18,360 nt of DNA from Candidatus Methylomirabilales bacterium (GTDB taxonomy: Bacteria > Methylomirabilota > Methylomirabilia > Methylomirabilales > CSP1-5). The DNA is taken from the NCBI GenBank assembly GCA_046758505.1, contig JBHIAH010000052.1:1-18360 (forward strand), written 5' to 3'. The notes under the pieces were generated by a model, which was given only the letters and a program-made list of their open reading frames with translations, was not told where the DNA came from and ran no database searches. A program made the translations under genes and the position numbers. This document shows, in pieces, positions 279-17,922 of the stretch (position 1 is the first letter of the stretch; each line of letters starts with the position of its first letter).

Positions 279-1895
279 ATGCCACTGCTGAGCCTGATTA
301 CTTTTCTCCCTGCGGCCGGGGCCCTCGGTCTTTTGGTGATTCCCCGGCGGCGCCAGGACCTGATCCGGGGGGCGGCCCTCGGGATTTCGCTGCTCACCTT
401 TCTCCTCTCCCTCGCCCTGTATGCCGGATTTCGACCGGGGGTCGGTGAGATGCAGTTCGTCGAGGAGGCCGCCTGGATTCCGAGCCTGGGGATCCGGTAC
501 AAGCTTGGGATCGACGGGATCAGCCTCTTTCTGGTCCTGCTGACCACGTTCCTCACCCCCATCGCCATCCTCGCCTCTTCCGGGGCACTGCGCCGGATAA
601 AGGAGTATATGCTGGCGATGCTCCTGCTGGAGACGGGGATGGTAGGGGTCTTCGTCGCCCTGGACCTGGTCCTCTTCTATGTCTTTTGGGAGGCGACGCT
701 GCTTCCCATGTACTTTATCATCGGGATCTGGGGAGGCCCCCGACGGATCTATGCCACCATGAAGTTTGTCCTCTATACGATGGCCGGGTCACTCCTGATG
801 CTGGTGGCGATTATTGGCGTGGCCTTGCTCCATGTTCGGGGGGGAGGGGACCCCACCTTCGACCTCACGGTCCTGATGAATGCCGACATTCCCCCCGCAT
901 TCCAAACCTGGCTCTTCCTCGCCTTTGCCCTCGCCTTCGCCATCAAGGTTCCGCTCTTTCCCTTTCATACCTGGCTGCCGGACGCCCACGTGGAAGCCCC
1001 CACGGCAGGGAGCGTCCTGTTGGCCGGCGTGCTTCTGAAAATGGGGGCCTACGGGTTTCTCCGCTTTGCCCTCCCCCTGTTCCCCATCGCCACGGTGACC
1101 TTCCTCCCCTGGATCTCGGGGCTCGCCCTGGCGGGGATCATTTATGGGGCGTGGGTGGCGATGGTGCAACCCGACCTGAAGAGCCTGGTGGCCTACTCCA
1201 GCGTGAGCCATTTGGGCTTTGTGGTGCTGGGGATTTTTGCCTTGAACGGGGAGGGGATGGCCGGATCCGTCCTCCAGATGGTCAACCACGGTCTCTCCAC
1301 CGGGGCCCTCTTCCTCCTGGTCGGGATGATCTACGAGCGGCGCCACACCCGGATGATCGCCGACTTTGGCGGGCTCTTCCGGGCCATCCCCCTCTTCGGT
1401 GGGGTTTTCCTCCTCGTGGCTCTCTCTTCCATCGGCCTGCCGGGATTGAACGGGTTCGTGGGGGAGTTTCTGATCCTCCTGGGGACCTTCCGCGTGCATC
1501 CGGTATACGGCGTAGTCGCAGTGACTGGGGTTATTTGGGCCGCCTGGTATATGCTTGGCATGCTCCGGCGAGTCCTCTTCGGCCCCGTGATCCTCCGGGA
1601 GAACGCGAGCCTCTCTGATCTAACTTGGAACGAACGGGCTGTCCTAATCCCCATCCTCATTCTGATCGTGTGGATCGGGGTGTATCCTACCCCCTTCCTC
1701 CACCGGATCGAGGCGTCGGTCGATCGCGTCATCGCCCAGGTGGAGCACCAACAGATGGTTCATGGTTCAAAGTTCATGGTTCATAGCACAAACTTGAATT
1801 CAGGGTCGTCCATGAACCCCGAACCATCAACCATGAACCCCCGCGTATCGTCCATGAACTATGAACCATTAACCGTGAACCGGAGGCAGAGGTGA
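279..1895 (+). CDS. nuoM: NADH-quinone oxidoreductase subunit M, with a repeat-derived C-terminal extension of about 45 aa
   Basis: Hydrophobic antiporter-like subunit with GIDGISL, LFYVFWE, AFAIKVPLFPFHTWLPDAHVEAPT, AYSSVSH and LPGLNGFVGEF motifs. Stop overlaps the nuoN start (GTGA). Confidence 0.96.
   Translation: MPLLSLITFLPAAGALGLLVIPRRRQDLIRGAALGISLLTFLLSLALYAGFRPGVGEMQFVEEAAWIPSLGIRYKLGIDGISLFLVLLTTFLTPIAILASSGALRRIKEYMLAMLLLETGMVGVFVALDLVLFYVFWEATLLPMYFIIGIWGGPRRIYATMKFVLYTMAGSLLMLVAIIGVALLHVRGGGDPTFDLTVLMNADIPPAFQTWLFLAFALAFAIKVPLFPFHTWLPDAHVEAPTAGSVLLAGVLLKMGAYGFLRFALPLFPIATVTFLPWISGLALAGIIYGAWVAMVQPDLKSLVAYSSVSHLGFVVLGIFALNGEGMAGSVLQMVNHGLSTGALFLLVGMIYERRHTRMIADFGGLFRAIPLFGGVFLLVALSSIGLPGLNGFVGEFLILLGTFRVHPVYGVVAVTGVIWAAWYMLGMLRRVLFGPVILRENASLSDLTWNERAVLIPILILIVWIGVYPTPFLHRIEASVDRVIAQVEHQQMVHGSKFMVHSTNLNSGSSMNPEPSTMNPRVSSMNYEPLTVNRRQR
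1755..1880. repeat. Inverted heptamer array (ATGGTTC x5 / CATGAAC x4 + x4) inside the nuoM 3' end
   Basis: atggttc atggttc aaagttc atggttc atagcac (1755-1789); catgaac cccgaac catcaac catgaac (1811-1838); catgaac tatgaac cattaac cgtgaac (1853-1880). The arms are reverse complements of one heptamer. Confidence 0.92.
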
Positions 1896-3349
1896 ACGTG
1901 AGCATCCCACACCTCGAATGGGGAGCCGCGGCCCCCTTCCTCGTCCTCACCGTCACCGCCCTGGGGACCCTTGTGCTCGACCTGTTCCTTGCTCCCCGGC
2001 GGCGGCACTGGCTCACCTATCTGGGGATCACGGGATTGCTGCTCACGGCGGTGATGCTGGTCCGCGGGTTTGGTGGGGGAGAACGGGTGGTGGGGGGGAT
2101 GCTCATCCTGGACGACTTCTCCCGATTTTTCCATCTCGTGTTTCTCCTCATCGCCGCCCTCACCGTACTGATCTCGGTCGAGTACGTGGAGCAGGAGGGA
2201 ATTCCCCGGACGGAGTACTACGCGTTGATCCTCTTCGCGACGGTGGGAATGATGGTCATGGCCTCCGCCGCAGATCTCATCATGATCTTCTTGGGTCTCG
2301 AGGCCCTCTCGATCCCCCTCTACATCCTGGCTGGTTTCCTCCGGAGCCACCTGAGGTCCAACGAGTCTGCCCTCAAGTATCTTCTCCTGGGCGCTTTTGC
2401 CTCGGCTTTCCTCCTGTACGGTATCGCCTTCCTTTACGGAGCTGCGGGCAGCACGCGCTTGGAGAGGATCGCCGCCTACCTGCGACATGGGGGGGCCTGG
2501 GAAAATCCCCTCGTATTCCTGGGAATCGGGCTTCTGCTGGTGGGACTCGGCTTCAAGGTGGCCGCCGTCCCCTTCCACATGTGGCTTCCCGATGTGTATG
2601 AGGGGGCCCCGACCCCCGTCACCGCCTTCATGATTGCCGGGACGAAGGCGGCCGCCTTCTCCGCCCTCCTGCGGGCCTTCGGAAGTGCGTTGACCCCGCT
2701 GCGGCCTGAATGGGTGACCCCCCTGTGGGTGCTCGCCCTGCTGACCATGGTGGTGGGGAATGTGGCGGCCCTCACCCAGCAGAGCATCAAGCGGATGCTT
2801 GCCTACAGCTCCATCGCCCACGCCGGCTATCTGTTGGTGGCGCTCGTCGCCGCCACGAGCCGGGGCTTTTCCAGCGTCCTTTTTTACGTCGTCGTCTACG
2901 CGTTTATGAACCTCGGCGCCTTTGCCGTGGTCATCGCTTTGGCTCGGCGGGGGGAAGAGAGTCCAACCCTTGCCAGTTATGCCGGCTTGGGTTCTCGCCA
3001 TCCCGTGTTGGCGTTCAGCATGGCGGTGTTCATGTTTTCGCTGGCGGGTCTCCCTCCGACGGGGGGATTCATGGGGAAGTTTTATATCTTCAGTGCGGCG
3101 GTGGAAGCCGGTTACGTGGGCCTGGCGGTGATCGCCGTTGTCTGTAGCCTCATCTCCGTCTTCTTCTACCTGCGGGTTGTTGTGGTGATGTACATGGAGG
3201 AGCCACGGGAAGGATACGCGACTCCGGCACTCTCTCCTGCCATCCTGACCACCCTTGTCCTCGCGACGGTGGCCACGCTGCAGTTGGGGCTTCTGCCGGC
3301 AGGGGTGTGGGATCTAGCGGTTCGGTCGATCCGGGGATTTTTGGGGTAG
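1892..3349 (+). CDS. nuoN: NADH-quinone oxidoreductase subunit N
   Basis: EYYALILF, FLGLE, ESALKYLLLGAFASAFLLYG, FKVAAVPFHMWLPDVYEGAPTP, IKRMLAYSSIAHAGY and SLAGLPPTGGF motifs. GTG start coupled to the nuoM stop; GGAGG upstream. Confidence 0.96.
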   Translation: MNVSIPHLEWGAAAPFLVLTVTALGTLVLDLFLAPRRRHWLTYLGITGLLLTAVMLVRGFGGGERVVGGMLILDDFSRFFHLVFLLIAALTVLISVEYVEQEGIPRTEYYALILFATVGMMVMASAADLIMIFLGLEALSIPLYILAGFLRSHLRSNESALKYLLLGAFASAFLLYGIAFLYGAAGSTRLERIAAYLRHGGAWENPLVFLGIGLLLVGLGFKVAAVPFHMWLPDVYEGAPTPVTAFMIAGTKAAAFSALLRAFGSALTPLRPEWVTPLWVLALLTMVVGNVAALTQQSIKRMLAYSSIAHAGYLLVALVAATSRGFSSVLFYVVVYAFMNLGAFAVVIALARRGEESPTLASYAGLGSRHPVLAFSMAVFMFSLAGLPPTGGFMGKFYIFSAAVEAGYVGLAVIAVVCSLISVFFYLRVVVVMYMEEPREGYATPALSPAILTTLVLATVATLQLGLLPAGVWDLAVRSIRGFLG

Positions 3350-3355
3350 GGGTGT

Positions 3356-4018
3356 ATGAGGCACGAGAGATCGAAGCGGATGATCAGGCACCGGATCCCT
3401 GAAAAGGCCATCACCCGCCTCACGATTTACCTCCGGTGTCTGGAGGAAGTTCTGGCCGATGGGATGACCGCGGTCTCGTCCCAGCAATTGGCCGAGCGGT
3501 TTGGGTTGAATTCCGCCCAGGTCCGCAAGGACTTAGCGTACTTCGGCCAATTCGGGGTTCGGGGGCTCGGCTACTATACCGAAGAGCTCAAACAGAACCT
3601 GGAGCGGATTCTGGGGCTCACCCGGGAGTGGGAGGTAGCGCTGGTGGGCCTGGGAAACCTGGGCTCCGCCCTCCTGAACTACCGGGGCTTTCAGCGGCGG
3701 GGGTTTCGCATATCGGTGGTCTTCGAGAACGATCCCAACAAGGTGGGCCAGCGTATTGGCAGGATCCCGGTCTGCCGCGTCGAGAAGATCGTTCCCATCC
3801 TCAAGCGCCGGAGGATCAGGATGGCCGTCATCACCGTCCCCGCCGCCGCCGCCCAGGCGGTTGCCGATCAGTTGGTGGCTGCGGGAGTCAACGCCATCCT
3901 CAATTTCGCCCCCACCCAACTTTCCGTTCCCAAGGGGGTCAAGGTCCAGAACGTGGACCTCTCCGTCATGCTCAAGACCTTGAGCTTTTATACAATCCGG
4001 TCCACCCCTGACCGATGA
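3356..4018 (+). CDS. rex: Redox-sensing transcriptional repressor Rex (alternative start ATG 3380)
   Basis: IPEKAITRLTIYLRCL, SSQQLA, QVRKDLAYFGQFGVRGLGY winged helix; Rossmann GLGNLGSAL; AILNFAP. Confidence 0.96.
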   Translation: MRHERSKRMIRHRIPEKAITRLTIYLRCLEEVLADGMTAVSSQQLAERFGLNSAQVRKDLAYFGQFGVRGLGYYTEELKQNLERILGLTREWEVALVGLGNLGSALLNYRGFQRRGFRISVVFENDPNKVGQRIGRIPVCRVEKIVPILKRRRIRMAVITVPAAAAQAVADQLVAAGVNAILNFAPTQLSVPKGVKVQNVDLSVMLKTLSFYTIRSTPDR

Positions 4019-4111
4019 CGGCTCGACTGAGGGCTTCGAGTGAGCCTCAGCCGAACTCCTCGCCGAAGTTCGACGACTGACGGCCGATGACCGACCTCCG
4101 ACGAGCGATGA
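4008..4111 (+). repeat. Degenerate tandem heptamer array (about CYGAYSR) interrupted by a REP-like hairpin
   Basis: ctgaccg atgacgg (4008-4021) ... ctgacgg ccgatga ccgacct ccgacga gcgatga (4077-4111). The second unit contains the rex stop codon TGA (4016-4018). Confidence 0.7.
4023..4069. repeat. REP-like nested hairpin
   Basis: TCGACTGAG[GGCTTCGAGTGAGCCTCAGCCGAACTC]CTCGCCGAAGT. Inner stem TTCG..TGAG-C-CTCA..CGAA; TCGAC occurs at 4023-4027 and again at 4070-4074. Confidence 0.6.
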
Positions 4112-4114
4112 GAA

Positions 4115-4266
4115 CAGCCGTCAGCGATCAGCCCTGGCTCGATTTCGGATTGCCAATTTCGAATTTCGGATTGAAAGCCAACTCTATACTTAGAAAATCC
4201 GACATCCGCAATTCCAAATCCGAAATGTTGGAAGCGGACTGCTGATAGCGGACAGCTGACTGCTTA
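4115..4266. repeat. Nested inverted heptamer arrays A-B-loop-B'-A' between convergent rex and ubiD
   Basis: A: cagccgt cagcgat cagccct (4115-4135). B: gatttcg gattgcc aatttcg aatttcg gattgaa (4141-4175). B': aatccga catccgc aattcca aatccga aat (4196-4226). A': gcggact gctgata gcggaca gctgact gctta (4234-4266). Confidence 0.9.
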
Positions 4267-4276
4267 AGGTGGGTGT

Positions 4277-6109
4277 CTACAAGATGCGGTACAGACTCTT
4301 CCCCTTCCTGGCTAACGCATCCACCTTTTTGGTCACCTCGGGGTCCTCGAGAAGCGGCGGGGCATGATGGGGCTTCAGCCGCGCATCGATGATCAGGGAC
4401 TTCCGGCATCCCCAGTGCTTGTGCGCGATGAAGCTTCCGACCCCATGGACGTCATGGGACGGATTCGACCGGGTAAAGGTCACCCAGAGGAAGTTTCGCA
4501 GGTTCCGCGCGGTGAATTCGGCATCATCCACAAGGACGATGAGGGGGATGCCCTCGAGGTCACACCGCTCGTCGAGAAAGCTCGTGAACGCGTGCAGTTC
4601 CATTTCAGCCTTGTCGTAATCAGAGAATGGCGGTCCCTGGACGACGACAATACCGGGCATGGCGAGGGCACACGTGGAATACCCCTCCGGCAGCGCGAAA
4701 TTCTGCGGGATTGTTCTCGCCAGCTCCCGCTTCTTGTTGCCTGCCGCGGCAATGACGAGTTTGGATCCGGCATTCAGTCCTGATCCGGAGTAGTCGAGCG
4801 TATCGATGGTCGTCCGCGTCTGGAAGTGAAGGTCCCGCGTCCAGTCAACTCGCTCTAAGGCGTGCCCGAGGAACTGGTCGATGCGATGGACATCGAGGGT
4901 GGGGTTGTCTTCCCCCGCGACGATGAAAAGGTACTTCGCAAGGGAGCACTGGCCAAAACCGAGCAGGCCGTTCGCCATGGTCAGGATTTCCTGGGGAATC
5001 CGCTCGCCATACGGGACATACCGCTCGCTGCCGATCGCGAGGAGCAGGGGGTGGACACCGGCGGCGTCCACCGCGTGGATGGCTTTGACGCCCGGAAGCT
5101 CGACGGGAACCATTGGTTGTGTGATCTCGTGGATGAGCTCCCCGAAGGAGGTGTCCTCCTGGGGTGGTCGGCCGACAACCGTGAAGGGCCATATGGCGTC
5201 TTTGCGATGATAGACCTTCTGAACCTCGAGGACGGGAAAATCGTGCGTAAGGCTGTAATATCCCAGGTGATCACCGAAGGGTCCCTCCGGGAGCGTTTTC
5301 TTGGGATCGATGGTTCCGGTGATGCAGAAGTCCGCATCCGCCGAGATGACAAAGCCGTCCCGCCGGGAGTAACGAAAACGGCGGCTGCCGAGCATGCCGG
5401 CGAAGAGCAGCTCCGTGAGACCCTCGGGAAGAGGCATGACCGCGGCAAAGGTATGCGCCGGCGGTCCACCCACAAAAACGCTTGCCTTCAGCGATTCGCC
5501 CCGGCGAATGGCTGCGGCGTGGTGGACACCGATTCCGCGGTGCGTCTGGTAGTGGAGCCCGACCTCCTTCCCCACTTGGTACAGGTTCCCCGCAAGCTGC
5601 ACGCGGTACATGCCCAGGTTGGAGTGCATCACCCCCCCTTTGTCGGGGCGTTCGGTGTACACCTGGCCTAGCGTGATGAACGGACCCCCGTCGTCGGGCC
5701 AGTTCTGGATCTGGGGGAGCTGGTCGATGGTGGTGCTCTCCTCGAGGACTGGTCCGCCCGATACCCGTCGAGGCAGGGACTGCAGCCCTGTGAGGGGGAC
5801 GGTGGCAAGGCTGAACGGCGCACGCCAGACGTTCGATGGGTCGGCCTTGAGCCGGACGATTTTCTTCACCCGCTCAAGGCTGTCCCGGAAGATAAACCGG
5901 CAGCGCTCGATGGTCCCAAAGAGGTTACACACGGCGGGAAATCGGCAGCCCTTGACGTTCTCGAAGTAGACCGCCGGACCTTTCACCTCGTACACGCGTC
6001 GCTGGATCTCCGCCATCTCGAGGTAGGGATCAACCTCTTCGGTGACGCGGACGAGGTGACCGTGTCGCTCGAGATCAAGGAGGCATTCTCTCAGGCTTCT
6101 ATATCCCAT
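4277..6109 (-). CDS. ubiD: UbiD-family prFMN-dependent decarboxylase, long 610-aa type; possibly quinone (menaquinone) biosynthesis
   Basis: N-terminal YRSLRECLLDLE..EVDPYLEMAEI..GPAVYFENVKG, NLGMYRVQ, catalytic-region EGPFGDHLGYY, TVVGRPPQED, DTLDYS. Substrate cannot be determined from sequence. Confidence 0.92.
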   Translation of the reverse strand: MGYRSLRECLLDLERHGHLVRVTEEVDPYLEMAEIQRRVYEVKGPAVYFENVKGCRFPAVCNLFGTIERCRFIFRDSLERVKKIVRLKADPSNVWRAPFSLATVPLTGLQSLPRRVSGGPVLEESTTIDQLPQIQNWPDDGGPFITLGQVYTERPDKGGVMHSNLGMYRVQLAGNLYQVGKEVGLHYQTHRGIGVHHAAAIRRGESLKASVFVGGPPAHTFAAVMPLPEGLTELLFAGMLGSRRFRYSRRDGFVISADADFCITGTIDPKKTLPEGPFGDHLGYYSLTHDFPVLEVQKVYHRKDAIWPFTVVGRPPQEDTSFGELIHEITQPMVPVELPGVKAIHAVDAAGVHPLLLAIGSERYVPYGERIPQEILTMANGLLGFGQCSLAKYLFIVAGEDNPTLDVHRIDQFLGHALERVDWTRDLHFQTRTTIDTLDYSGSGLNAGSKLVIAAAGNKKRELARTIPQNFALPEGYSTCALAMPGIVVVQGPPFSDYDKAEMELHAFTSFLDERCDLEGIPLIVLVDDAEFTARNLRNFLWVTFTRSNPSHDVHGVGSFIAHKHWGCRKSLIIDARLKPHHAPPLLEDPEVTKKVDALARKGKSLYRIL

Positions 6110-6115
6110 CGGCCA

Positions 6116-6361
6116 TTACGGTCCGACCGTGTCCTCCGGCGACAGCTCCCCGACGTCTCCTTCCAAGATGATCTTTGCGGTGACCGGGACCTCCCTATCG
6201 ATGCTTCCACATTTCAGTGCTCCGACGGGTCGGCCGGCCCTGGTGACGTGGTCGGTAATTTCGACAATCGCGAGGATCGGATTCACGGGGACGGGGATCC
6301 CTTTCAGCCTCCCCTCCTGCTTGAGGGCCTGAAGGAGTTCCCGAAGGTCCGGGTAGGCCAT
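6116..6361 (-). pseudogene. Internally deleted and truncated ubiD-family remnant, still an open 81-codon frame
   Basis: MAYPDLRELLQAL..VNPILAIVEITDHVTRAG (UbiD N-terminus) joined to PVGALKCGSIDREVPVTAKIILEG (the central PV.LVKC..DLEVP..AEIVLEG motif), ending at GP. Strong RBS GGAGGG upstream. Confidence 0.82.
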
Positions 6362-6397
6362 TGATCCCTCCTTTCTCCCTGCTTCAGAGACACCTCG

Positions 6398-6426
6398 ATC
6401 GTCCCGGGATGGCTGGTAGGCGTCAA
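6398..6426 (-). promoter_or_regulatory. Candidate sigma-70 promoter for the ubiD remnant and ubiD
   Basis: Minus strand TTGACG (6426-6421), 17 nt, GACGAT (6403-6398). The -10 match is weak. Confidence 0.35.
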
Positions 6427-6663
6427 GTCACTATATCCGCGGATGTCGGGTGGAACAAGGCATTTTTCCGCTCTCCGCGCGCGCGGAGCGCCGGATCGCC
6501 GACATTCTACGCTTTGCGCATCCGGGCAATCGCAGACCATGCCGAAGGACGCCTCATTCAGCCCGCGGGCGCGGAGACGAAGACCAGGGAGTAGCGTCGT
6601 GATGGGATCGCTTCCGATTGTTGCATCAAGCCGATCGCGTGTATACTGCATCGGGAAATGTCC

Positions 6664-6692
6664 TTGACCCTTCCCCGGGTCGACCGTATACT
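6664..6692 (+). promoter_or_regulatory. Sigma-70 promoter for glnD (and probably aroE)
   Basis: TTGACC (6664-6669), 17 nt, TATACT (6687-6692); 30 nt upstream of GTG 6723, which has a GGAGAG RBS. Confidence 0.75.
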
Positions 6693-6722
6693 GAGCTAAA
6701 AATCGTCATTTATGGAGAGAGC

Positions 6723-9533: not shown

Positions 9534-9604
9534 CCGGTGAAAGAAGGGGGGAGGAGGAGGGCCAGGGTGGGCTGTCGTCTTCCGAGCGGTCCTCCTCCGG
9601 TTCA

Positions 9605-10468
9605 ATGTCCATAACGGGGAAGACCACGATGTGTGTCTTGTTGGGTTACCCGGTGGCCCACAGCGCTTCCCCCCGCATGCAGAACACCGCCTTTGCCGCG
9701 CTGGGGCTCGATTGGGCCTATATCCCGTGGGCAGTGCGCCCTGAAGCCTTTCCAAAGACCCTCGAGGCTCTCCGGAGGATCGAGAACTTCGGTGGGGCGA
9801 ATGTGACCATTCCGCATAAGGAAGCAGCCTTTGAGGTCTTGGATGAGCTCAGCGCGGATGCCCTTTGCATCGGCGCGGTGAACACGATTGTCCCCCGGGG
9901 GGGGACCCTCGTCGGGCACAATACGGACGGGGAGGGATTTGTGACCTCCCTCAGAGAGGAGGCCGGCGAAGATCCCGGGGGAAAGCGGGTGGGCCTCGTG
10001 GGGACGGGGGGGGGCGCCAAGGCACTGGCCTTCACCCTCGCGCGGGCCGGCGCTGCAGAGCTCGTCCTGTTCGGCCGGAGTGAGGAGCGGGCGCGAACCC
10101 TGGTCAGCCATCTGCGGAAAATGTTCCGAAATATTGAGGTGTTGGCATTGGGCTTGCAAGACTTAAAGGCCGATCGGCTGGGACGGCTGGATATTCTCAT
10201 CAACACGACACCCGTGGGAATGCAGCCTGCAGATCCGCCCTTATTTGACTATGCGATGTTGCCAGAAGACGTGATGGTGTGTGATCTGATCTACCGGCCT
10301 CCCGAGACCTCGCTCTTGGCGGCGGCCCGATCCCGGGGGTGTCGAATTCTCAATGGCTCTGGTATGCTCCTGTACCAGGGAGCACGGGCTTTCGAGCTGT
10401 GGACGGAACGGAAGGCCCCGATCCCTATCATGCGAGAGGCCCTGGCTCAGGGGGAGCAGGGTGCTTGA
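9605..10468 (+). CDS. aroE: Shikimate dehydrogenase
   Basis: LLGYPVAHSASPRMQN, GANVTIPHKE, GAVNT, GHNTDGEGF, GTGGGAKA, INTTPVGM, DLIYRP, GMLLYQG. Start chosen at MSITGKT (9605); the frame is open from 9530. Confidence 0.93.
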   Translation: MSITGKTTMCVLLGYPVAHSASPRMQNTAFAALGLDWAYIPWAVRPEAFPKTLEALRRIENFGGANVTIPHKEAAFEVLDELSADALCIGAVNTIVPRGGTLVGHNTDGEGFVTSLREEAGEDPGGKRVGLVGTGGGAKALAFTLARAGAAELVLFGRSEERARTLVSHLRKMFRNIEVLALGLQDLKADRLGRLDILINTTPVGMQPADPPLFDYAMLPEDVMVCDLIYRPPETSLLAAARSRGCRILNGSGMLLYQGARAFELWTERKAPIPIMREALAQGEQGA

Positions 10469-10540
10469 GGGCATCTCGAAGGGAACCGGTATGATGCGAT
10501 TTCCTCCCATCACGGTGCTCGCAAGAGAGTGGAGGGTGTC

Positions 10541-12244
10541 ATGACCGTAGGGTCGAGTCGCCTCGGCGAGATGTTGGTCAAATCGAAGCTGATTTCCGAG
10601 GACCAGCTCAAGAAGGCCCTGGCGCAACAGTCGACCTCGGGAGGGCGTCTCGGGAGCAATCTGGTCAAACTGGGATACCTCACCGAGGAAGATATCACCA
10701 GCTTTCTCAGCAAGCAGTACGGCGTGCCCTCCATCAACCTTGCCCACTTTGAAATCGATCAAAGCGTGATCAAGCTGGTCCCGGGCGAGATCGCCCAGAA
10801 ACACATGGTCGTCCCGATCAACCGGAAGGGGAACGTCATCACCGTGGCCATGGCCGACCCCAGCAATATCTTTGCCATCGACGACATCAAATTCTTGTCC
10901 GGCTTCAAGGTGGAACCGGTGGTGGCGGCCGAGACCTCGATCAGGAACGCCATTAATAAGCATTATGACTCTGCCGGACTCGTGCAGGACATCATGAAGA
11001 CCTTCGATGACCGGGAGGTCGCCACGGTGGACGAGAACGACGAGGGGCCCGAGGTGGGTGACCTGCAGCGCGCTACCGAGGACGCTCCCGTCGTCAAGCT
11101 GGTAAACCTGATCCTGAGCGACGCGATCAAGAAGGGGGCATCGGATATCCACATTGAGCCGTACGAGAAATCCTTCCGAGTCCGGTACCGCATTGACGGG
11201 GTCCTCTACGACGTCATGCAGCCGCCCATGAAACTGCGGGCGGCCATCATCTCCCGCGTGAAGATCATGTCACAGCTCGACATCGCCGAGCGCCGCCTCC
11301 CCCAGGATGGGCGTATCAAGATCAGGATGGGGCAGAAGGAGATCGACTTCCGGGTGTCCACCCTGCCGACTATCTACGGCGAGAAAGTCGTCCTGCGTCT
11401 CCTTGACCGATCGAACTTGCAGTTGGATATGACGTCGCTGGGATTTGAGCCCCAGGCACTGCACATCTTCGAGAAGGCGATTCTGGCGCCGTACGGGATG
11501 GTCCTAGTGACCGGCCCGACCGGCAGCGGAAAGACGACGACCCTGTATTCGGCTCTCAACCGCCTGAACACCACCGAGACGAATATCATGACTGCAGAAG
11601 ATCCGGTGGAGTTCAACCTGTCGGGGGTCAATCAGGTTCAGATGAAGCCAGAAATCGGGTTGAACTTTGCGGCTGCCCTGCGCTCCTTCCTGCGGCAGGA
11701 TCCGGACATCATCATGGTGGGGGAGATCCGCGATTACGAGACGGCGGAGATTGCCATCAAAGCGGCCCTGACCGGCCACCTGGTCCTCTCCACGTTGCAT
11801 ACGAACGATGCGCCCTCGACCGTGAGTCGGCTCATCAACATGGGGGTGGAGCCGTTTCTGGTGGCGGCCTCGACCAACATGATTCTGGCCCAGCGGCTCG
11901 CCCGAAAGATCTGCACCAGTTGCAAAGAAGAGGTCGCCGTGCCTCACCAGGCTTTGGTCGACGTAGGCCTCTCCCCCGAGGAGGCCAAGGCCCTGACCTG
12001 CTATCAGGGGAAGGGGTGCATGGAATGTAACGATACCGGATACCGGGGACGGGTGGCGCTGTACGAGGTTATGGCGATCGCCGACGACATCAAGGATGCC
12101 GTCCTGCAGGGAGCCTCCGCAAGCGAACTGAAGGAGCTCGCCCGGAAGAACGGCATGAAGACGCTGCGAGACTCAGGCCTGCAGAAGATCCGGGAAGGAA
12201 TGACCACCATCCCTGAGGTCATGCGGGTGACCAGCCAAGGCTAA
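10541..12244 (+). CDS. pilB: Type IVa pilus assembly ATPase PilB
   Basis: N-terminal RLG repeats (MshEN-like), ASDIHIEP, LDIAERRLPQDGR, Walker A GPTGSGKT, LRQDPD.IMVGEIRD, tetracysteine CTSC..CMEC. GGAGGG before ATG 10541. Confidence 0.95.
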   Translation: MTVGSSRLGEMLVKSKLISEDQLKKALAQQSTSGGRLGSNLVKLGYLTEEDITSFLSKQYGVPSINLAHFEIDQSVIKLVPGEIAQKHMVVPINRKGNVITVAMADPSNIFAIDDIKFLSGFKVEPVVAAETSIRNAINKHYDSAGLVQDIMKTFDDREVATVDENDEGPEVGDLQRATEDAPVVKLVNLILSDAIKKGASDIHIEPYEKSFRVRYRIDGVLYDVMQPPMKLRAAIISRVKIMSQLDIAERRLPQDGRIKIRMGQKEIDFRVSTLPTIYGEKVVLRLLDRSNLQLDMTSLGFEPQALHIFEKAILAPYGMVLVTGPTGSGKTTTLYSALNRLNTTETNIMTAEDPVEFNLSGVNQVQMKPEIGLNFAAALRSFLRQDPDIIMVGEIRDYETAEIAIKAALTGHLVLSTLHTNDAPSTVSRLINMGVEPFLVAASTNMILAQRLARKICTSCKEEVAVPHQALVDVGLSPEEAKALTCYQGKGCMECNDTGYRGRVALYEVMAIADDIKDAVLQGASASELKELARKNGMKTLRDSGLQKIREGMTTIPEVMRVTSQG

Positions 12245-12335
12245 GGAGGAGACCGCACGCCGAGGCAGGTGTATTCGGAAAGGGATCCGGGTGGCGGCTT
12301 CCGCTGCCCATTTCATACTGTACACCGGAGGAGTT

Positions 12336-13463
12336 ATGACGAATCTGGACCAGATGTTAAAAGAGTTGGTGGCCAAGGGGGCCTCGGATCTGCACATCAC
12401 CAGCGGCATCCCTCCGATGATCCGTCTCCACGGTCAGCTGAGACCCCTGGGGAACACTCCCCTCACGCCGGCGGTAACCAAGCAGCTCGCGTACAGCATC
12501 CTGACCGATGTCCAGAAGCAAAAGTTCGAGGAGCAGAAGGAGCTCGACTTCTCCTTTGGCGTGCGGGGGCTCGGCCGGTTTCGGTCCAACTGCTTCCTCC
12601 AACGGGGGGCGGTGGGGGTGGCCATCAGGACCATTCCGTACAAGATTTACACCTTCCACGAGCTGGGGCTGCCCAGGATCGTGGAGGAGCTCTGCAACAG
12701 GCCCTCGGGGCTCGTTCTCGTGACCGGACCGACCGGTTCGGGAAAGTCTACCACGCTGACCACCATGATCGATAAGATCAACGGCGAACGCAACGAGCAC
12801 ATCGTGACCATCGAGGATCCCATCGAGTTCGTCCATACGCACAAGAAGTGTATTGTCAATCAGCGTGAGGTGCATGCGGATACTGACTCGTTTGCGAACG
12901 CGCTCAGAGCGGCCCTCCGCCAGGATCCAGACAAAGTCCTCATCGGGGAGATGCGCGACCTAGAGACGATCGAGGCAGCCCTCACCATTGCCGAGACCGG
13001 ACATCTGACCTTTGCCACCCTGCACACCAATTCGGCCGTCCAGACGATCAACCGGATCATCGATGTCTTTCCGGCCCATCAGCAGCCGCAGATTCGCGCG
13101 CAGCTCTCCTTCGTCTTGGAGGGGGTCCTCTGCCAGTCCCTCCTCCCGAGGGCGGATGGGCAGGGGCGGGTGCTGACCCTGGAAATCATGATCCCCAACC
13201 CCGCCATCCGGAATCTGATCCGGGAGGACAAGGTCCACCAGATCTATTCGACGATGCAGGCGGGTCAAGAGAAATCCGGAATGCAGACGATGAACCAATC
13301 ACTCCTGGACCATTTTCTGAAGCGCAGTATCTCCAGGGAGATGGCGCTCGGGGCGTCTCAGAACCCCGAAGAACTGACGCAGATGATGCAGCGGGCCCAG
13401 GTCGCCGGAGCCGGGGCGGGGGGGAAGATGCCCGTGGCCGGGAGCCAATGGGGGAGGAGATAG
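12336..13463 (+). CDS. pilT: Type IV pilus retraction ATPase PilT
   Basis: ASDLHI, GPTGSGKST, TIEDPIEF, LRQDPD, TLHTNSA and the PilT signature AIRNLIRE. GGAGGA RBS before ATG 12336. Confidence 0.95.
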   Translation: MTNLDQMLKELVAKGASDLHITSGIPPMIRLHGQLRPLGNTPLTPAVTKQLAYSILTDVQKQKFEEQKELDFSFGVRGLGRFRSNCFLQRGAVGVAIRTIPYKIYTFHELGLPRIVEELCNRPSGLVLVTGPTGSGKSTTLTTMIDKINGERNEHIVTIEDPIEFVHTHKKCIVNQREVHADTDSFANALRAALRQDPDKVLIGEMRDLETIEAALTIAETGHLTFATLHTNSAVQTINRIIDVFPAHQQPQIRAQLSFVLEGVLCQSLLPRADGQGRVLTLEIMIPNPAIRNLIREDKVHQIYSTMQAGQEKSGMQTMNQSLLDHFLKRSISREMALGASQNPEELTQMMQRAQVAGAGAGGKMPVAGSQWGRR

Positions 13464-13466
13464 AGC

Positions 13467-14678
13467 ATGCCAGTTTTTGCGTTTAGCGGCAGGACGCGCA
13501 CGGGGCAGGTCGTCAATGGCGAGATGGATGCCCCCAACCGGGAGGCGGTGGTTGCGCAGCTCAGGCGCCAACAGGTCCTGGCGACTTCGGTCAAACCCAA
13601 GGCGAAGGACATTGAAATCCGGGTCCCCGGTTTTGGGGGGGCGGTCGGTGATAAGGACCTGGCCGTTGTGACCCGACAGCTCGCGACGATGATCGATGCT
13701 GGGCTCCCGCTGGTCCAGTGCCTCGATATCCTCGCCCAGCAACAGGAGAAAAAGGTCTTCAAAAAGACCCTCCATGAAATCCGGGAGGATGTGGAGGGGG
13801 GCTCCACCTTCTCCAATGCCCTCAAGAGGCATCCGAAGGTCTTCGGCACCCTGTACACCAACATGGTGGAGGCCGGGGAGGCGGGAGGCATCCTCGATAC
13901 GATCCTGAACCGGCTGGCGGCGTATATCGAAAAGGCGATGGCCCTGAAGAAGCGCGTGAAGACTGCCATGTTCTATCCATCGACCATCGTCACCGTGGCG
14001 ATCGTGGTGGTTATCTTCCTGCTGATCTATGTCATCCCCACGTTTCAGCAGTTGTTCGCGGGGTTCGGGGCGACCCTGCCGCTGCCCACGGTGATTGTCC
14101 TCGAGTTGAGCCGGATCGTCCGCACCTATCTCCTGTTTATGGTCGGCGGGCTCGTGGCGCTGATCGTGGGGATCAGGTTCTACTACCGGACCACAGGGGG
14201 AAAAAGGGCAATCGACAGTCTGCTGCTCAGGCTCCCCGTCTTTGGGCCGCTGATCCGGAAGGTGGCGGTGGCCAAGTTCACCCGGACCCTGGGGACCTTG
14301 GTCTCGAGTGGCGTGGCCATCCTGGACGGTCTGGATATCACGGCGCGGACGGCCGGAAACAAGGTGGTGGAAGAAGCGGTCTTCAGGGCACGCATGACCA
14401 TTGCGCAGGGGAAGACCATCGCCGAGCCCCTCCAGGCCTCGGGGGTCTTCCCACCCATGGTGGTGCAGATGATCGCCGTCGGGGAGCAGACCGGCGCCCT
14501 GGATCGCATGTTGAACAAGATCGCTGACTTTTACGATGAAGAGGTGGATGTGGCGGTGGCGGGGCTCACCTCGCTGCTGGAACCGCTCTTGGTCATCTTC
14601 CTCGGAGTGATCATCGGGGGGGTGGTCATCGCCATGTATCTGCCCATCTTCAAGCTGATCAGCGTCGTGGGCAAGTAG
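13467..14678 (+). CDS. pilC: Type IV pilus inner-membrane platform protein PilC
   Basis: TRQLATMIDAGLPL, AGEAGGILD, AMFYP, FTRTLGTL, VGEQTGALD..L, AMYLPIF (GspF/PilC family). Confidence 0.95.
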   Translation: MPVFAFSGRTRTGQVVNGEMDAPNREAVVAQLRRQQVLATSVKPKAKDIEIRVPGFGGAVGDKDLAVVTRQLATMIDAGLPLVQCLDILAQQQEKKVFKKTLHEIREDVEGGSTFSNALKRHPKVFGTLYTNMVEAGEAGGILDTILNRLAAYIEKAMALKKRVKTAMFYPSTIVTVAIVVVIFLLIYVIPTFQQLFAGFGATLPLPTVIVLELSRIVRTYLLFMVGGLVALIVGIRFYYRTTGGKRAIDSLLLRLPVFGPLIRKVAVAKFTRTLGTLVSSGVAILDGLDITARTAGNKVVEEAVFRARMTIAQGKTIAEPLQASGVFPPMVVQMIAVGEQTGALDRMLNKIADFYDEEVDVAVAGLTSLLEPLLVIFLGVIIGGVVIAMYLPIFKLISVVGK

Positions 14679-14687
14679 CCTGCTTCA

Positions 14688-14757
14688 TTCACGGTTCACA
14701 GCTTACAGACAGAGAGTCCGATGGGTGCGGTGAACCATGACCCGTGAACTGTGAACC
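14688..14757. repeat. Inverted heptamer array, same family as the one in nuoM
   Basis: ttcacgg ttcacag cttacag (14688-14708) and gtgaacc atgaccc gtgaact gtgaacc (14730-14757). Confidence 0.85.
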
Positions 14758-14776
14758 GGGCCTGAAGGGAAGACCG

Positions 14777-16486
14777 ATGGCGGCGGGGAAGGAAGGAGGG
14801 ACGAGGCAGACAGGCTGGGTGAAGCGGCTGAAATGGGTGATCGGCATTCGCCTGGTGATGGCGATCCTCTTCCTCGGTTCGGCGGCTATCATCCAACTGA
14901 AAGAAGAACCCCCCTACCCGACGGGTCCCCTCTTTTTCCTCTTGGGGCTGACGTTTGCCCTGAGTGGCCTCTACACGATCCTCCTGCCGCGGGTGAAGCG
15001 CCTGGATGAATTTGGCGGCCTCCAGTTCGCCGCCGATCTCTTGTTGAGCACCGGATTGGTCCACTACACCGGGGGGATCGAGAGCCCCCTGACCTTCATC
15101 TATATCTTTCCGATCTTTGGCAGCGGGACCCTGCTCGGCCGACGAGGGGCCCTTCTCCTCTCTTCGCTTGCCAGTATCCTCTTCGGGCTCCTGATCGATC
15201 TCGAGTTTTACCGGATCCTCCCCCCCGTAGGGTATGCCGCCAGCACGTACCTTTCTTCCGGCTTCGTGTTCTTCCGGGTCTTCATCAACATCGCTGCCTT
15301 TTTTCTAGTGGCGCTGTTGAGCAGCCATCTGGCTGAGCGCCTGCGGGAGGCCGGGAGGCAACTCGAGGTCCAGCGGACCGACCTCCGAAACCTCAAGACG
15401 CTCTATCGGGACGTGATTGCCACCATCCCGAGCGGGATCATGACCCTCGACCTCGAGGGACGCATCATCGCCTTCAACGCCTCAGCGGAGCGCATCACCG
15501 GTTTGAAGGCGAGCGAGGTCGTCGGGTGGCCGTACGCCGAGGTGGGCCTGGCGGGGTTCCCGGGCCTTAAGGCTTTCGGCACCCGCGCGGAGGATCCGCT
15601 ACCCGCCATGGCCTTCGAGGCTCCCTTCATGCGTGGGGATGGGACGGTGCTCCCCATCGGCGTCACCTATTCTTCCCTCCGAGACGGGGAGGAAAGACTC
15701 CTCGGGGCGGTGGCCATCTTTCAGGATCTCACCGAGCGGCGGCGGATCGAGGAGCAGCTCCGGCGTGCGGATCGGTTGGCAGCGGTGGGGCAGTTGGCCG
15801 CGAGCATTGCCCATGAGGTCCGGAACCCGTTGGCGGCCATCAGCGGCTCCATCCAGCTCCTGGAGGATGGGCTCAAGGGCCAGGAGCATGAGCGGCTCCT
15901 GGGGGTGATCCTTCGGGAGGCGGATCGTCTCAAGTTGATCACCGGCCAGTTTCTCGATCAGGTGCGGATGCCGGGACCGCCGGGGAGGGGATGCGATCTG
16001 GTCGCCTCGCTGGAGGAGACGCTGTTCCTCCTTCAGCAGAGCGAAGAGTGCCGTCCCGGTGTTCACTTCCGGTTTGAGAAGCGGGTGGAGGCCCTTCCGG
16101 TGGTGGCGGATCGGGACCGGTTGAAGCAGATCTTCTGGAATATTGGCTTGAACGCCCTGCAGGCCATGTCGGAGGGCGGGACACTCTGGGTGGTCGTTGG
16201 GCCAGAGGAGGGGTTCGGGGCAGTCGAATTTCGCGATTCCGGTGAGGGGATCCCTGCCGAGCAGCTCGCGAAGATTTTCGAGCCGTTTTATACCACCAAG
16301 GGGAGGGGGACCGGTCTCGGACTCTCCATTGCCAAGCGCCTGGTGGAGGATCTCGGCGGACGGATCGAGGTGAAGAGCCACCCGGGTGGCGGGGCGACCT
16401 TTCAGATCTTCCTTCGCCGGCTCGCCGAGGTGGGGTCAGGCGGGGCGAGCTCCTCTACCCTCTCTTCGGCTGGGGGGCCACGATGA
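14777..16486 (+). CDS. pilS: Membrane sensor histidine kinase PilS (multiple TM helices, PAS, HisKA, HATPase)
   Basis: Hydrophobic N-terminus with TGGIESP; PAS-like [20 protein letters not shown]-box AHEVRNPL; N-box [26 protein letters not shown]. Located between pilC and pilR. Confidence 0.9.
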
Positions 16487-17922
16487 CGAGAATCTTGATC
16501 GTCGATGATGAAGCGGGCATGCGGGAGTTCCTAAGCATCCTCCTGGAACGGGAGGGTTTCCAGGTGGAGTGTGCAGAGGACGGGGAGGAGGCTCTCCAGG
16601 CGGTCCGGAAGGCTCAGTTTGACCTGATCATCTCCGATCTCAGAATGCCGAACCTGGATGGCGTCCGCCTCTTGGAAGGCCTTCAGAAAGTTGAGCCCGA
16701 GATCCCGGTGGTCCTGGTGACGGCCTACGCATCGGCCGAGTCGGCCATCCAGGCCATGAAGCTCGGGGCGTACGACTACCTGACCAAGCCCTTTCGGGTG
16801 GAGGAGATCAAGCAGGTGATCTCCCGGGCCCTGGAGAGCAAGGCGGCTCGCGTGGCGGGAGTCTTTCCTTGGTCGGGGGAGGCCTTCCCCCGACCGGTGG
16901 AGGGGCTCATCGGCCGGAGCCCAAAGATGATCGAGCTCTATAAGCTGATCAGCAAGGTGGCGACGGTTTCCGGGACGGTCTTGGTGACCGGGGAGAGCGG
17001 GACCGGGAAAGAGCTGGTGGCCCGGACCATCCATAAGAATAGCGACCACGCCACCAAGCCGTTCCTGGCCATCAGTTGTGGCGCGATTCCGGAAACGCTG
17101 CTCGAGAGCGAGCTGTTTGGCCACGTGAAGGGCGCCTTTACGGGGGCGGTGGCCGCCAAGGCGGGTCTCTTTGAGGTGGCCAACGGCGGGACCGTCTTCC
17201 TGGATGAGATCGGGGAGACGAGTCCCGCCATTCAGGTGAAGTTGCTCCGGGTCTTGCAAGAGCGTGTGTTTCGGCGGGTGGGCGGGACCGACGATATCGA
17301 GGTCGATGTCCGGGTGATCGCCGCCACGCATCAGGATCTGAAGGACCTGATCCAGAAGGGGCGCTTCCGGGAGGACCTCTATTACCGGCTCAACGTCATT
17401 CCCATTCACCTCCCTTCCCTTCGGGAGCGGCGGGAGGATATTCCCCTCCTCGCCATGAATTTCCTCGCCAAGTATAGCCAGGAGACTAAACGGCCCATCC
17501 GAGGGATCGCCCCCGATGCCATGGAGCTCTTGTTGCGCAACCATTGGCCAGGAAACGTGCGGGAGCTCGAAAATGCCATCGAGCGAGCCGTGGCGCTGGG
17601 GACGGCGGCCGTGTTGACCCCCGAGAGCCTGCCCGAACACATAAAAGCCGAGAGTCCAGAGTCGAGAGACGAGCGACCGGACCCAGGAAACAGGGAAACA
17701 GAGATCCACCCTCGACTCTCCACCCTCGACTCTCCGCTCGATCTGGATGCGGTGGTCTCCCGGGTCGAGCGGGACCTGATCCTGGAGGCGCTCAGGCAGG
17801 CGGGCGGCGTCCAGAAGAAGGCGGCCCAAGTCCTCGGGCTGAGTTTCGAATCGTTCCGGTACCGGATGAAGAAACACGGGATCGACCCGGAGGAGGGGCG
17901 GCGGGCCCCTTCGGAAGGCTGA
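16483..17922 (+). CDS. pilR: Sigma-54-dependent response regulator PilR (receiver, AAA+, Fis HTH)
   Basis: ILIVDDE, SDLRMP, GESGTGKE, ESELFGHVKGAFTGA, FREDLYYRL, WPGNVRELEN, C-terminal HTH. ATGA overlap with pilS. Confidence 0.93.
   Translation: MTRILIVDDEAGMREFLSILLEREGFQVECAEDGEEALQAVRKAQFDLIISDLRMPNLDGVRLLEGLQKVEPEIPVVLVTAYASAESAIQAMKLGAYDYLTKPFRVEEIKQVISRALESKAARVAGVFPWSGEAFPRPVEGLIGRSPKMIELYKLISKVATVSGTVLVTGESGTGKELVARTIHKNSDHATKPFLAISCGAIPETLLESELFGHVKGAFTGAVAAKAGLFEVANGGTVFLDEIGETSPAIQVKLLRVLQERVFRRVGGTDDIEVDVRVIAATHQDLKDLIQKGRFREDLYYRLNVIPIHLPSLRERREDIPLLAMNFLAKYSQETKRPIRGIAPDAMELLLRNHWPGNVRELENAIERAVALGTAAVLTPESLPEHIKAESPESRDERPDPGNRETEIHPRLSTLDSPLDLDAVVSRVERDLILEALRQAGGVQKKAAQVLGLSFESFRYRMKKHGIDPEEGRRAPSEG
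17646..17738. repeat. Inverted heptamer array (AGTCGAG / CTCGACT) in frame inside pilR
   Basis: agccgag agtccag agtcgag agacgag (17646-17673) and atccacc ctcgact ctccacc ctcgact ctccgct (17704-17738). Confidence 0.82.

Follow-up and report, generated by a model that had tools for sequence, protein, structure and literature searches.

What are the short repeats of period 7 that recur, in inverted pairs, between and inside the housekeeping genes of a Candidatus Methylomirabilales bacterium? The DNA analyzed here, which we call the window, is the 18,360-nucleotide (nt) contig JBHIAH010000052.1 of assembly GCA_046758505.1, or contig C52 of a genome designated G000 (2.99 Mb, 62.8% GC, 96.8% complete). 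Four loci in it had been read from the letters alone as tandem heptamers facing reverse-complement heptamers, and the original prediction held that they might be cargo-less versions of arrays that flank small Avd-like genes of the TIGR02436 family in other genomes. All four loci are present. With moderate confidence, we consider the arrays to be gene-less copies of a mobile cassette whose gene encodes such a four-helix-bundle (4HB; TIGR02436, Avd-like) protein, since the two do not differ in arms, polarity, or unit families. The cargo-less interpretation holds for the architecture and polarity of the arrays, for their unit families, for orthologous filled and empty junctions, and for lineage co-occurrence. 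The system itself is real, genome-wide, and cross-phylum.

Genome-Wide Census of Heptamer Arrays

Tandem Repeats Finder reported 536 period-7 arrays of at least three copies in G000, compared with 38 at period 6, 30 at period 8, and 27 at period 9, and one period-7 array in 1.5 Mb of order-5 Markov sequence. Our own detector found 122 inverted pairs within 120 nt at period 7, 0–6 at each of periods 5, 6, and 8–11, and none in the Markov sequence. These counts against Markov sequence and other periods exclude chance, as had been argued from the window's loci. Arms mostly consist of three to four units, and many have no paired partner. Each unit family keeps a fixed polarity among 137 pairs (family A, 55:4; B2, 34:2; C, 12:1; B1, 11:1), and an RG dinucleotide occurs in the left arm only in 87 of these pairs, in both arms in 21, in the right only in 20, and in neither in 9.

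When placed relative to genes predicted with our own hexamer-based caller, 219 of 313 array loci fall in gaps with co-directional neighbors, 27 in convergent gaps, and 9 in divergent gaps; a further 29 are inside genes, and contig ends account for the other 29. Divergent gaps hold 3.5% of the intergenic loci (9 of 255) but make up 14% of the gaps of at least 80 nt (202 of 1443). Spacers average 52% GC versus 61% for intergenic DNA and are nearly all unique, with another match for 9 of 82, mostly to nested repeats, and one spacer in three copies. Nesting has a fixed order, B1 lying outside A in 19 adjacent cases and inside A in none. Besides those in the window, four inverted pairs occur in frame within proteins. 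Several histidine-kinase ATPase domains carry, in frame and at one shared loop, family A elements with different spacers (C57:4790, C134:2402, C138:1675, and C41:6872, given as contig and position in G000).

Small dispersed inverted repeats at gene ends, in some cases inserted in frame into proteins, are familiar from repetitive extragenic palindromic (REP) elements with their tyrosine transposases (REP-associated tyrosine transposases, RAYTs), from MITEs (miniature transposable elements with inverted repeats), and from Rickettsia palindromic elements. The arrays differ from all of these in having periodic arms, unique spacers, no shared interior, no linked transposase, and no target duplication visible against relatives that are only ~80% identical. 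We regard it as very unlikely that they are REP- or MITE-like elements moved in trans by a Y1/RAYT transposase or a reverse transcriptase. Their placement does resemble that of REP elements, G000 has 12 PF01797 genes, and 4HB proteins are related to Avd, a reverse-transcriptase partner (PMC10053308; this and the other papers cited below are covered in part, and statements about them refer to the parts covered). However, the 12 Y1 genes have short terminal inverted repeats of their own and none is adjoined by a heptamer array, the nearest lying several hundred bases off; no PF00078 gene was found in G000, which is 96.8% complete; and the window has no Rfam match. The 4HB match to NF033474 is weak (E-value 1.8e-4, score 21.8 against a cut-off of 80). 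The suggested links to RAYT and to reverse transcriptase genes are accordingly not supported, nor is the idea of classical copy-paste MITEs, given the unique spacers. A link to GxxExxY genes in this genome fares no better, PF13366, which we take to be a proxy for them, being absent from the G000 matches. The PF01797 genes themselves (L396–L400 and others) are Y1/RAYT-like, encode 230–347 amino acids, and mostly have terminal inverted repeats of ~15–25 nt that touch the stop codon.

Inverted Arms Bracket Four-Helix-Bundle Genes

To relate the arrays to 4HB genes, we collected 255 matches from relatives, GTDB genomes, metagenomes, and viral contigs; 243 were distinct, and exclusion of 17 with short flanks left 226 usable loci. 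The sample spans bacteria, archaea, and viral contigs. It is skewed to one motif class, and the many Acidobacteriota and the duplicates among the viral contigs mean that its loci do not count as independent. The best flank period was 7 upstream in 191 loci and downstream in 194. Arrays of the same period occur in both flanks at 174 loci, where they are reverse complements with at most one mismatch in 131 and direct repeats in 12. Inverted 7(–9)-mer arms bracket 131 of the 226 genes, versus 1 of 734 control window pairs taken from the same loci, which bears out the suggested TIGR02436 link. At period 7 alone, 123 of 159 loci have matched arms, while permutation of flanks gave a mean of 6.5 and a maximum of 17 in 1000 permutations. 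The 4HB gene is the only gene found repeatedly between arms; among five candidate brackets for other cargo in G000, no gene inside is annotated or demonstrated as cargo.

The units are highly diverse, with 109 different left units among the 159 period-7 loci, and share a common phase: RG is present in 117 of 123 left units, compared with 86 in shuffles, left arms are G-rich and right arms C-rich, and within-array conservation in both arms is highest at positions 2–3 (0.96 and 0.95) and lowest at position 5 (0.83–0.84). Pairs of 4HB proteins above 75% identity have the same unit in 81–100% of cases, and those below 55% in ~2%. On these identity bins, on which the result rests (the accompanying quick tree had many open forks), the unit tracks the protein down to ~65% identity and is random below 55%.

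The single TIGR02436 gene of G000, on contig C116, contains an internal stop and lies between inverted heptamer arms. Among relatives (G001, G003–G012, and others denote genomes compared with G000, and L numbers, apart from those of the PF01797 genes above, denote 4HB loci), genes are bracketed by family A at L049, L035, L405, L409, and L412, by B1 at L029, the upstream side of which has both arm types, by B2 at L023, L024, and L050, by C at L411, and by E at L037, in the same polarity as the gene-less arrays. Of the window's families, A, B, and C bracket such genes in members of the same genus. Family D was not seen to bracket a 4HB gene in the phylum, and loosely similar arms occur outside it at L305 and L226. 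One relative, G007, has five 4HB cassettes with five different units.

Different 4HB clades and units occupy the same junction in different relatives, both between ABC permease and ATPase genes (L041, L410, and L411) and after a mutase gene (L035, L037, L049, L409, and L412). Such variation of clades at one junction is cassette replacement. Units of 8 and 9 nt in the same inverted design are found at L016 (in G015, after rex), L030, L038, L046, L047, and L188, where they are nested in heptamer arms or flank 4HB genes. The sample also includes 47 viral contigs with 4HB genes (L309–L355); arms are present on many of them, and the genes may spread by way of such contigs.

Filled, Empty, and Shared Sites

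In G000, four junctions that carry a 4HB gene in G006, G009, G020, and G027 have arrays with no gene, often built from a different unit. At the site filled in G009, G000 retains traces of the B1 arms with an A element inside; a comparable element is found at none of the three other filled sites examined, and the epimerase junction had no match in G000. The window's own sites carry the same unit, another unit, or nothing in relatives. For example, the site after rex has the same nest in G001 and G010, a different unit in G011, and at most a short remnant in G005 and G007, while the linker occupied by a family D array in the window holds arrays of CAGACC type in G001, G003, and G005 but is free of arrays in G006 and G012. 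Among 150 orthologous junctions in G006, an array is present at 9 of the 15 where G000 has one and at 1 of the 135 where it does not; the corresponding figures for 141 junctions in G005 are 14 of 30 and 5 of 111. The unit has changed at 9 of the 23 sites shared with these two genomes.

The C arm of the window together with 7 nt of spacer (4141–4179) shares all 39 nt with one half of a contig C130 element, the other half of which differs; arms are thus copied in modular fashion. An excess of shared half-sites in family A (29 versus 5) was set aside, as it is confounded by adjacent arrays and degenerate units, and the 39-nt match alone is relied on.

The main rival to gene-less cassette copies is that the arrays are made and maintained by the host, through slippage at a favored 7-nt period plus gene conversion between loci, with the 4HB gene as a passenger that hops from one existing site to another via short arm homology. 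We consider this rather unlikely. The sites are old and shared with changed units, as the G006 and G005 counts indicate, the exact half-element copy and a triplicated element fit conversion, and arrays persist in genomes with no 4HB match. However, host manufacture leaves unexplained the fixed polarity of families A, B2, and C, the modal three to four copies and RG phase across more than 100 units, the near absence of arrays in gene-free lineages, and the lack of other cargo between arms in G000.

Lineage Distribution and Points Against the Cassette

TIGR02436 is found in 31 of 151 genomes searched in the phylum, and in none of 96 f9, 13 f10, and 4 f4 genomes. Samples of f9 and f4 contain 2 arrays in 154 kb, a background level, and the family A pattern occurs in 2 of 96 f9, 0 of 13 f10, and 0 of 2 f4 genomes. 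Among Bacteroidia, 13 of 61 genomes have no 4HB match; 10 gene-free genomes yielded 2 arrays in 350 kb and 10 gene-rich genomes 7 in 100 kb, a contrast that gives modest support to a tie between gene and arrays.

Several observations weigh against gene-less copies of a 4HB cassette. The strict arm test is failed by 95 of the 226 4HB loci, these loci are not independent, and the lineage contrasts are few; the Bacteroidia samples are small, and neither the gene-free nor the gene-rich set contains an inverted pair. Strict sequence recognition fits poorly with a repertoire of more than 100 units that loses its link to the protein once identity falls below 55%, and the correlation of unit with protein could come from co-inheritance (linkage) alone. 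Family B1 has an RG polarity opposite to that of the other families. The gene of G000 is broken, and G001, G004, and G008 have 30–59 family A matches but no 4HB match, so the arrays outlast the 4HB gene or do not need it; the tie is loosened also by f8, which has the gene and few arrays in 40 kb. In 241 array clusters no remnant of a 4HB gene was found, so simple deletion from filled cassettes is at most a possible origin of the empty elements. The lack of a visible target duplication, noted above, may be due to the distance of the relatives, and four public runs show no presence/absence variant at 98% likeness. Joins seen at 85% likeness were discarded as coming from relatives or paralogous arrays. 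Finally, no mobilizing enzyme was identified.

Pairing of the Arms and a Proposed Mechanism

The arms could alternatively act as RNA stems (RNase III sites, stabilizers, or terminators), as in the intervening sequence of 23S rRNA, with the protein binding the stem as Avd does. Some observations suit this reading: divergent gaps are avoided, two window loci fold better than all 200 of their shuffles, the Coxiella intervening sequence has a 28-bp terminal stem, heptamers before its S23p gene, and excision by RNase III (PMC4990558), and in Avd an RNA stem-loop is touched by each of the five protomers (bioRxiv 10.1101/2023.10.23.563531). We nonetheless judge it improbable. On the transcribed strand, G–U pairs do not exceed A–C pairs in 95 empty pairs (143 versus 138, p 0.81) and do so weakly in 125 cassettes (126 versus 98, p 0.07). 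An arm matches its own partner at 21.6 of 28 positions and the arm of another element at 21.8 of 28, which does not support local fold-back or selection for pairing; many arms are unpaired, and avoidance of promoters is expected of any insertion. The RNA-hairpin selection raised in the original prediction is not upheld, while its remark that what the arms conserve is the 7-nt period with a core, and not exact pairing, is confirmed. By these measures the arms behave as repeated instances of a degenerate family motif, like binding sites, and this matching to a family motif, with no G–U bias, favors protein-binding ends over RNA hairpins.

A cassette consists of about four RG-phased 7-mers, the 4HB gene, and a reverse-complement arm, and each cassette lineage has its own unit. 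We propose that the 4HB pentamer binds the units of its cognate arms, roughly one unit per subunit, because its gene is the only one found repeatedly inside the arms, its family has a solved five-chain structure, and its relative Avd grips RNA; it may also hold both ends together. Cassettes, empty sites, and half-sites would be exchanged and inserted with the help of a host or trans-acting enzyme. Insertions would land at tolerated places, just after stops, before starts, and in flexible linkers, and very often in an older element, giving rise to nests. The gene-less arrays would then be non-autonomous ends or landing sites of the cassette. We infer in this way a dedicated mobilizing mechanism, as had been supposed for the window, including a role of the 4HB protein in movement.

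More tentatively, and as a conjecture we hold with less than even confidence, these elements may form a new and widespread class, in which the sole gene is a non-catalytic Avd-like pentamer that reads four to five RG-phased 7-mers per end and, together with an enzyme of the host, drives both insertion and the exchange of half-sites. Empty copies would then make up much of the heptamer excess of prokaryotes, and S23p-bearing intervening sequences of rRNA would be a special case of insertion. Each 4HB protein comes with a predicted ligand, the adjoining arm, so that binding is directly testable, and recognition by one protein family that keeps a single geometry while switching among more than 100 units would be out of the ordinary.

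Relation to Known Systems

The arrays join three puzzles: the excess of 7-nt repeats in bacteria, the role of TIGR02436/S23p, a very common family with a solved pentamer and no assigned role, and the origin of gene-bearing intervening sequences of rRNA. Gene-less cassette copies, if the interpretation is correct, would account for the abundance of 7-base repeats in the genomes of bacteria. Mazel in 1990 and Mrazek in 2007 are said to have described, respectively, cyanobacterial STRR (short tandemly repeated repetitive) heptamers and a general excess of 7-nt repeats, likewise of period 7, dispersed, and degenerate. These have been explained by polymerase slippage, as cited in PMC4692102, with no cassette gene implicated in the text covered.

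Rehm et al. 2015 (PMC4692102) read the GGGAATC heptamers of Xanthomonas and the GGGGA(C/T)T heptamers of Nostoc as quadruplexes. With 70–75 inverted pairs per genome, those repeats resemble ours in their preference for four units, inverted pairs, intergenic position, and scarcity between divergent genes. They differ in having one G-rich unit, whereas G000 has many units without G-tracts, nested and each tied to a cassette. The term "four helix" is absent from the main text of that paper as covered, while row 15 of its supplement 2 places a four-unit array at the start of XCC0516, which is the solved 4HB pentamer of PDB entry 2GSC (five chains; family match). No downstream arm of XCC0516 was found listed in the covered parts of the supplements. 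That our arrays in general are G-quadruplex elements is extremely unlikely: the shared four-unit preference and placement and the G-rich left arms suit the proposal, but the window units generally have no GGG tract and even GG occurs in only 51 of 123 cassette units, so that unit composition largely refutes it.

Warrier et al. 2016 (PMC4990558) described an S23p/TIGR02436 gene in the Coxiella 23S rRNA intervening sequence, within a 28-bp terminal inverted repeat and with two to four heptamer repeats before its start; the distribution is sporadic, horizontal transfer was proposed, and the solved structure of the family was described as a pentamer. Such intervening sequences are confined to rRNA and excised by RNase III, whereas the cassettes found here lie between protein genes and are accompanied by hundreds of gene-less copies, some in frame in proteins. 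Both the Xanthomonas GGGAATC repeats and the 23S rRNA intervening sequences fit a 4HB cassette system. Avd, a relative that is likewise a pentameric four-helix bundle, has crevices between its protomers in which nucleic acid is bound (bioRxiv 10.1101/2023.10.23.563531; PMC10053308). In diversity-generating retroelements its partners are a reverse transcriptase and a template repeat, unlike in G000, where no reverse transcriptase was found. Zhang et al. (PMC3936711) reported the 4HB family inserted in cas operons, with no mention of repeats in the part covered. The pieces are published separately, and we came across no description of their synthesis or of the gene-less form with many units. In the full-text literature searched, with subscription journals, bioRxiv supplements, and curators' family comments outside its scope, no paper links heptamer arms to the TIGR02436 family in general; the link may be in print, and, to judge from the original prediction, the association may be known informally.

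Array Loci of the Window

The genes of the window are housekeeping genes: nuoM, nuoN, rex, a UbiD-family decarboxylase gene, glnD, aroE, pilB, pilT, pilC, a sensor kinase gene, and a sigma-54 regulator gene, the last two being named pilS and pilR from their position. As originally noted, neither a transposase nor a 4HB gene is seen among its ORFs. The four loci sit among nuoM/N, rex, the ubiD-like gene, pilC, and the sensor/regulator genes, and none is in rRNA. They are not assembly artifacts, since public DNA runs of one study, which may have used the source samples, yield contigs that cover loci 1 and 3 without a difference and a contig that reaches through locus 4 to its final base with 1 difference.

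The single architecture claimed for the four loci holds in that all have inverted heptamer arms (Table 1). It does not extend to details, as locus 1 has two right arms, locus 2 combines a nest with a palindrome, and the left arm of locus 3 has decayed to two or three units. At locus 1, one left arm is followed by a 25-nt spacer and both right arms, all in frame in the C-terminal tail of nuoM; the arms are 82% complementary over 28 nt and the fold has a z-score of –4.98. Family A arms are present at this junction in five other genus members, with other units in other families and none in f4. Locus 2, in the convergent gap between rex and the ubiD-like gene, consists of a B2[C] nest after a B1 arm, into which a REP-like palindrome, a repeat in its own right, is set, and the whole stretch folds weakly (z-score –1.44); in G001 and G010 the nest lacks the inner insertion. 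Locus 3, which Tandem Repeats Finder did not report, occupies the pilC/pilS gap. Its left arm is intact in G006, seven other genus members have other units, and G001 and G010 have none. Locus 4 is in frame in the linker between the AAA+ and helix-turn-helix domains of PilR (fold z-score –3.22). Through such insertions, the elements rewrite protein tails and linkers, as in NuoM, PilR, and histidine kinases.

Table 1. Arms, spacers, and associated repeats at the four array loci, in window coordinates
Locus	Feature	Position	Strand	Remarks
1	Family A left arm, 4 units (A/G)GTTCA(T/G/C/A) (GGTTCAT type)	1755..1784	+	in frame, nuoM tail
1	Spacer, 25 nt	1785..1809	.	sequence
1	Family A right arm 1	1810..1839	-	complementary to left arm
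1	Family A right arm 2	1852..1881	-	left-right-right layout, as around 4HB genes L035, L049, L412
2	B1-type arm (CCGATGA/CCGACGA)	4008..4110	+	overlaps rex stop; split by REP-like palindrome
2	REP-like palindrome inside B1 arm	about 4020..4068	.	separate small repeat; core in 6 genome copies
2	B2 left arm (AGC-N-GTC type)	4115..4132	+	outer bracket
2	Family C left arm	4141..4172	+	with 7 nt of spacer, matches half of C130 element over 39 nt
2	Spacer of nested C element, 22 nt	4173..4194	.	21/22 nt identical in G001/G010
2	Family C right arm	4195..4226	-	
2	B2 right arm	4233..4264	-	outer bracket, before ubiD-like stop
3	Decayed family A left arm	14683..14706	+	after pilC stop; intact in G006
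3	Family A right arm	14730..14757	-	before pilS
4	Family D left arm (AGAGTCG type)	17646..17673	+	in frame in PilR linker
4	Spacer	17674..17704	.	in frame, with 2-copy 8-mer
4	Family D right arm	17705..17738	-	in frame

The REP-like palindrome of locus 2 is also found inside heptamer arrays elsewhere in G000 (C14:27850–28000 and C4:66600–66700) and in G005, and all five of five motif matches lie near heptamer arrays. A repeat of ~100 nt with strong internal symmetry has 19 motif matches, 11 of them beside B1 or E arms; its sites in G000 include C1:24150–24280, C1:146300, C2:115550, C54:4280, C102:1100, and C99:5700. A tRNA-like gene at C13:14300–14620 lies between complete A elements on each side, likewise in G005.

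Window positions 4098–6128 take in the ubiD-like gene plus the nest next to it and match G001/G010 at 92% identity, compared with ~82% for neighboring sequence. Either conservation of ubiD or transfer may lie behind the raised identity, which is therefore given no weight as evidence; the gene is absent from the equivalent site in several genus members, making transfer possible. Just upstream of it, a short ORF at 6116–6361 resembles the N-terminus of a second UbiD-family gene.

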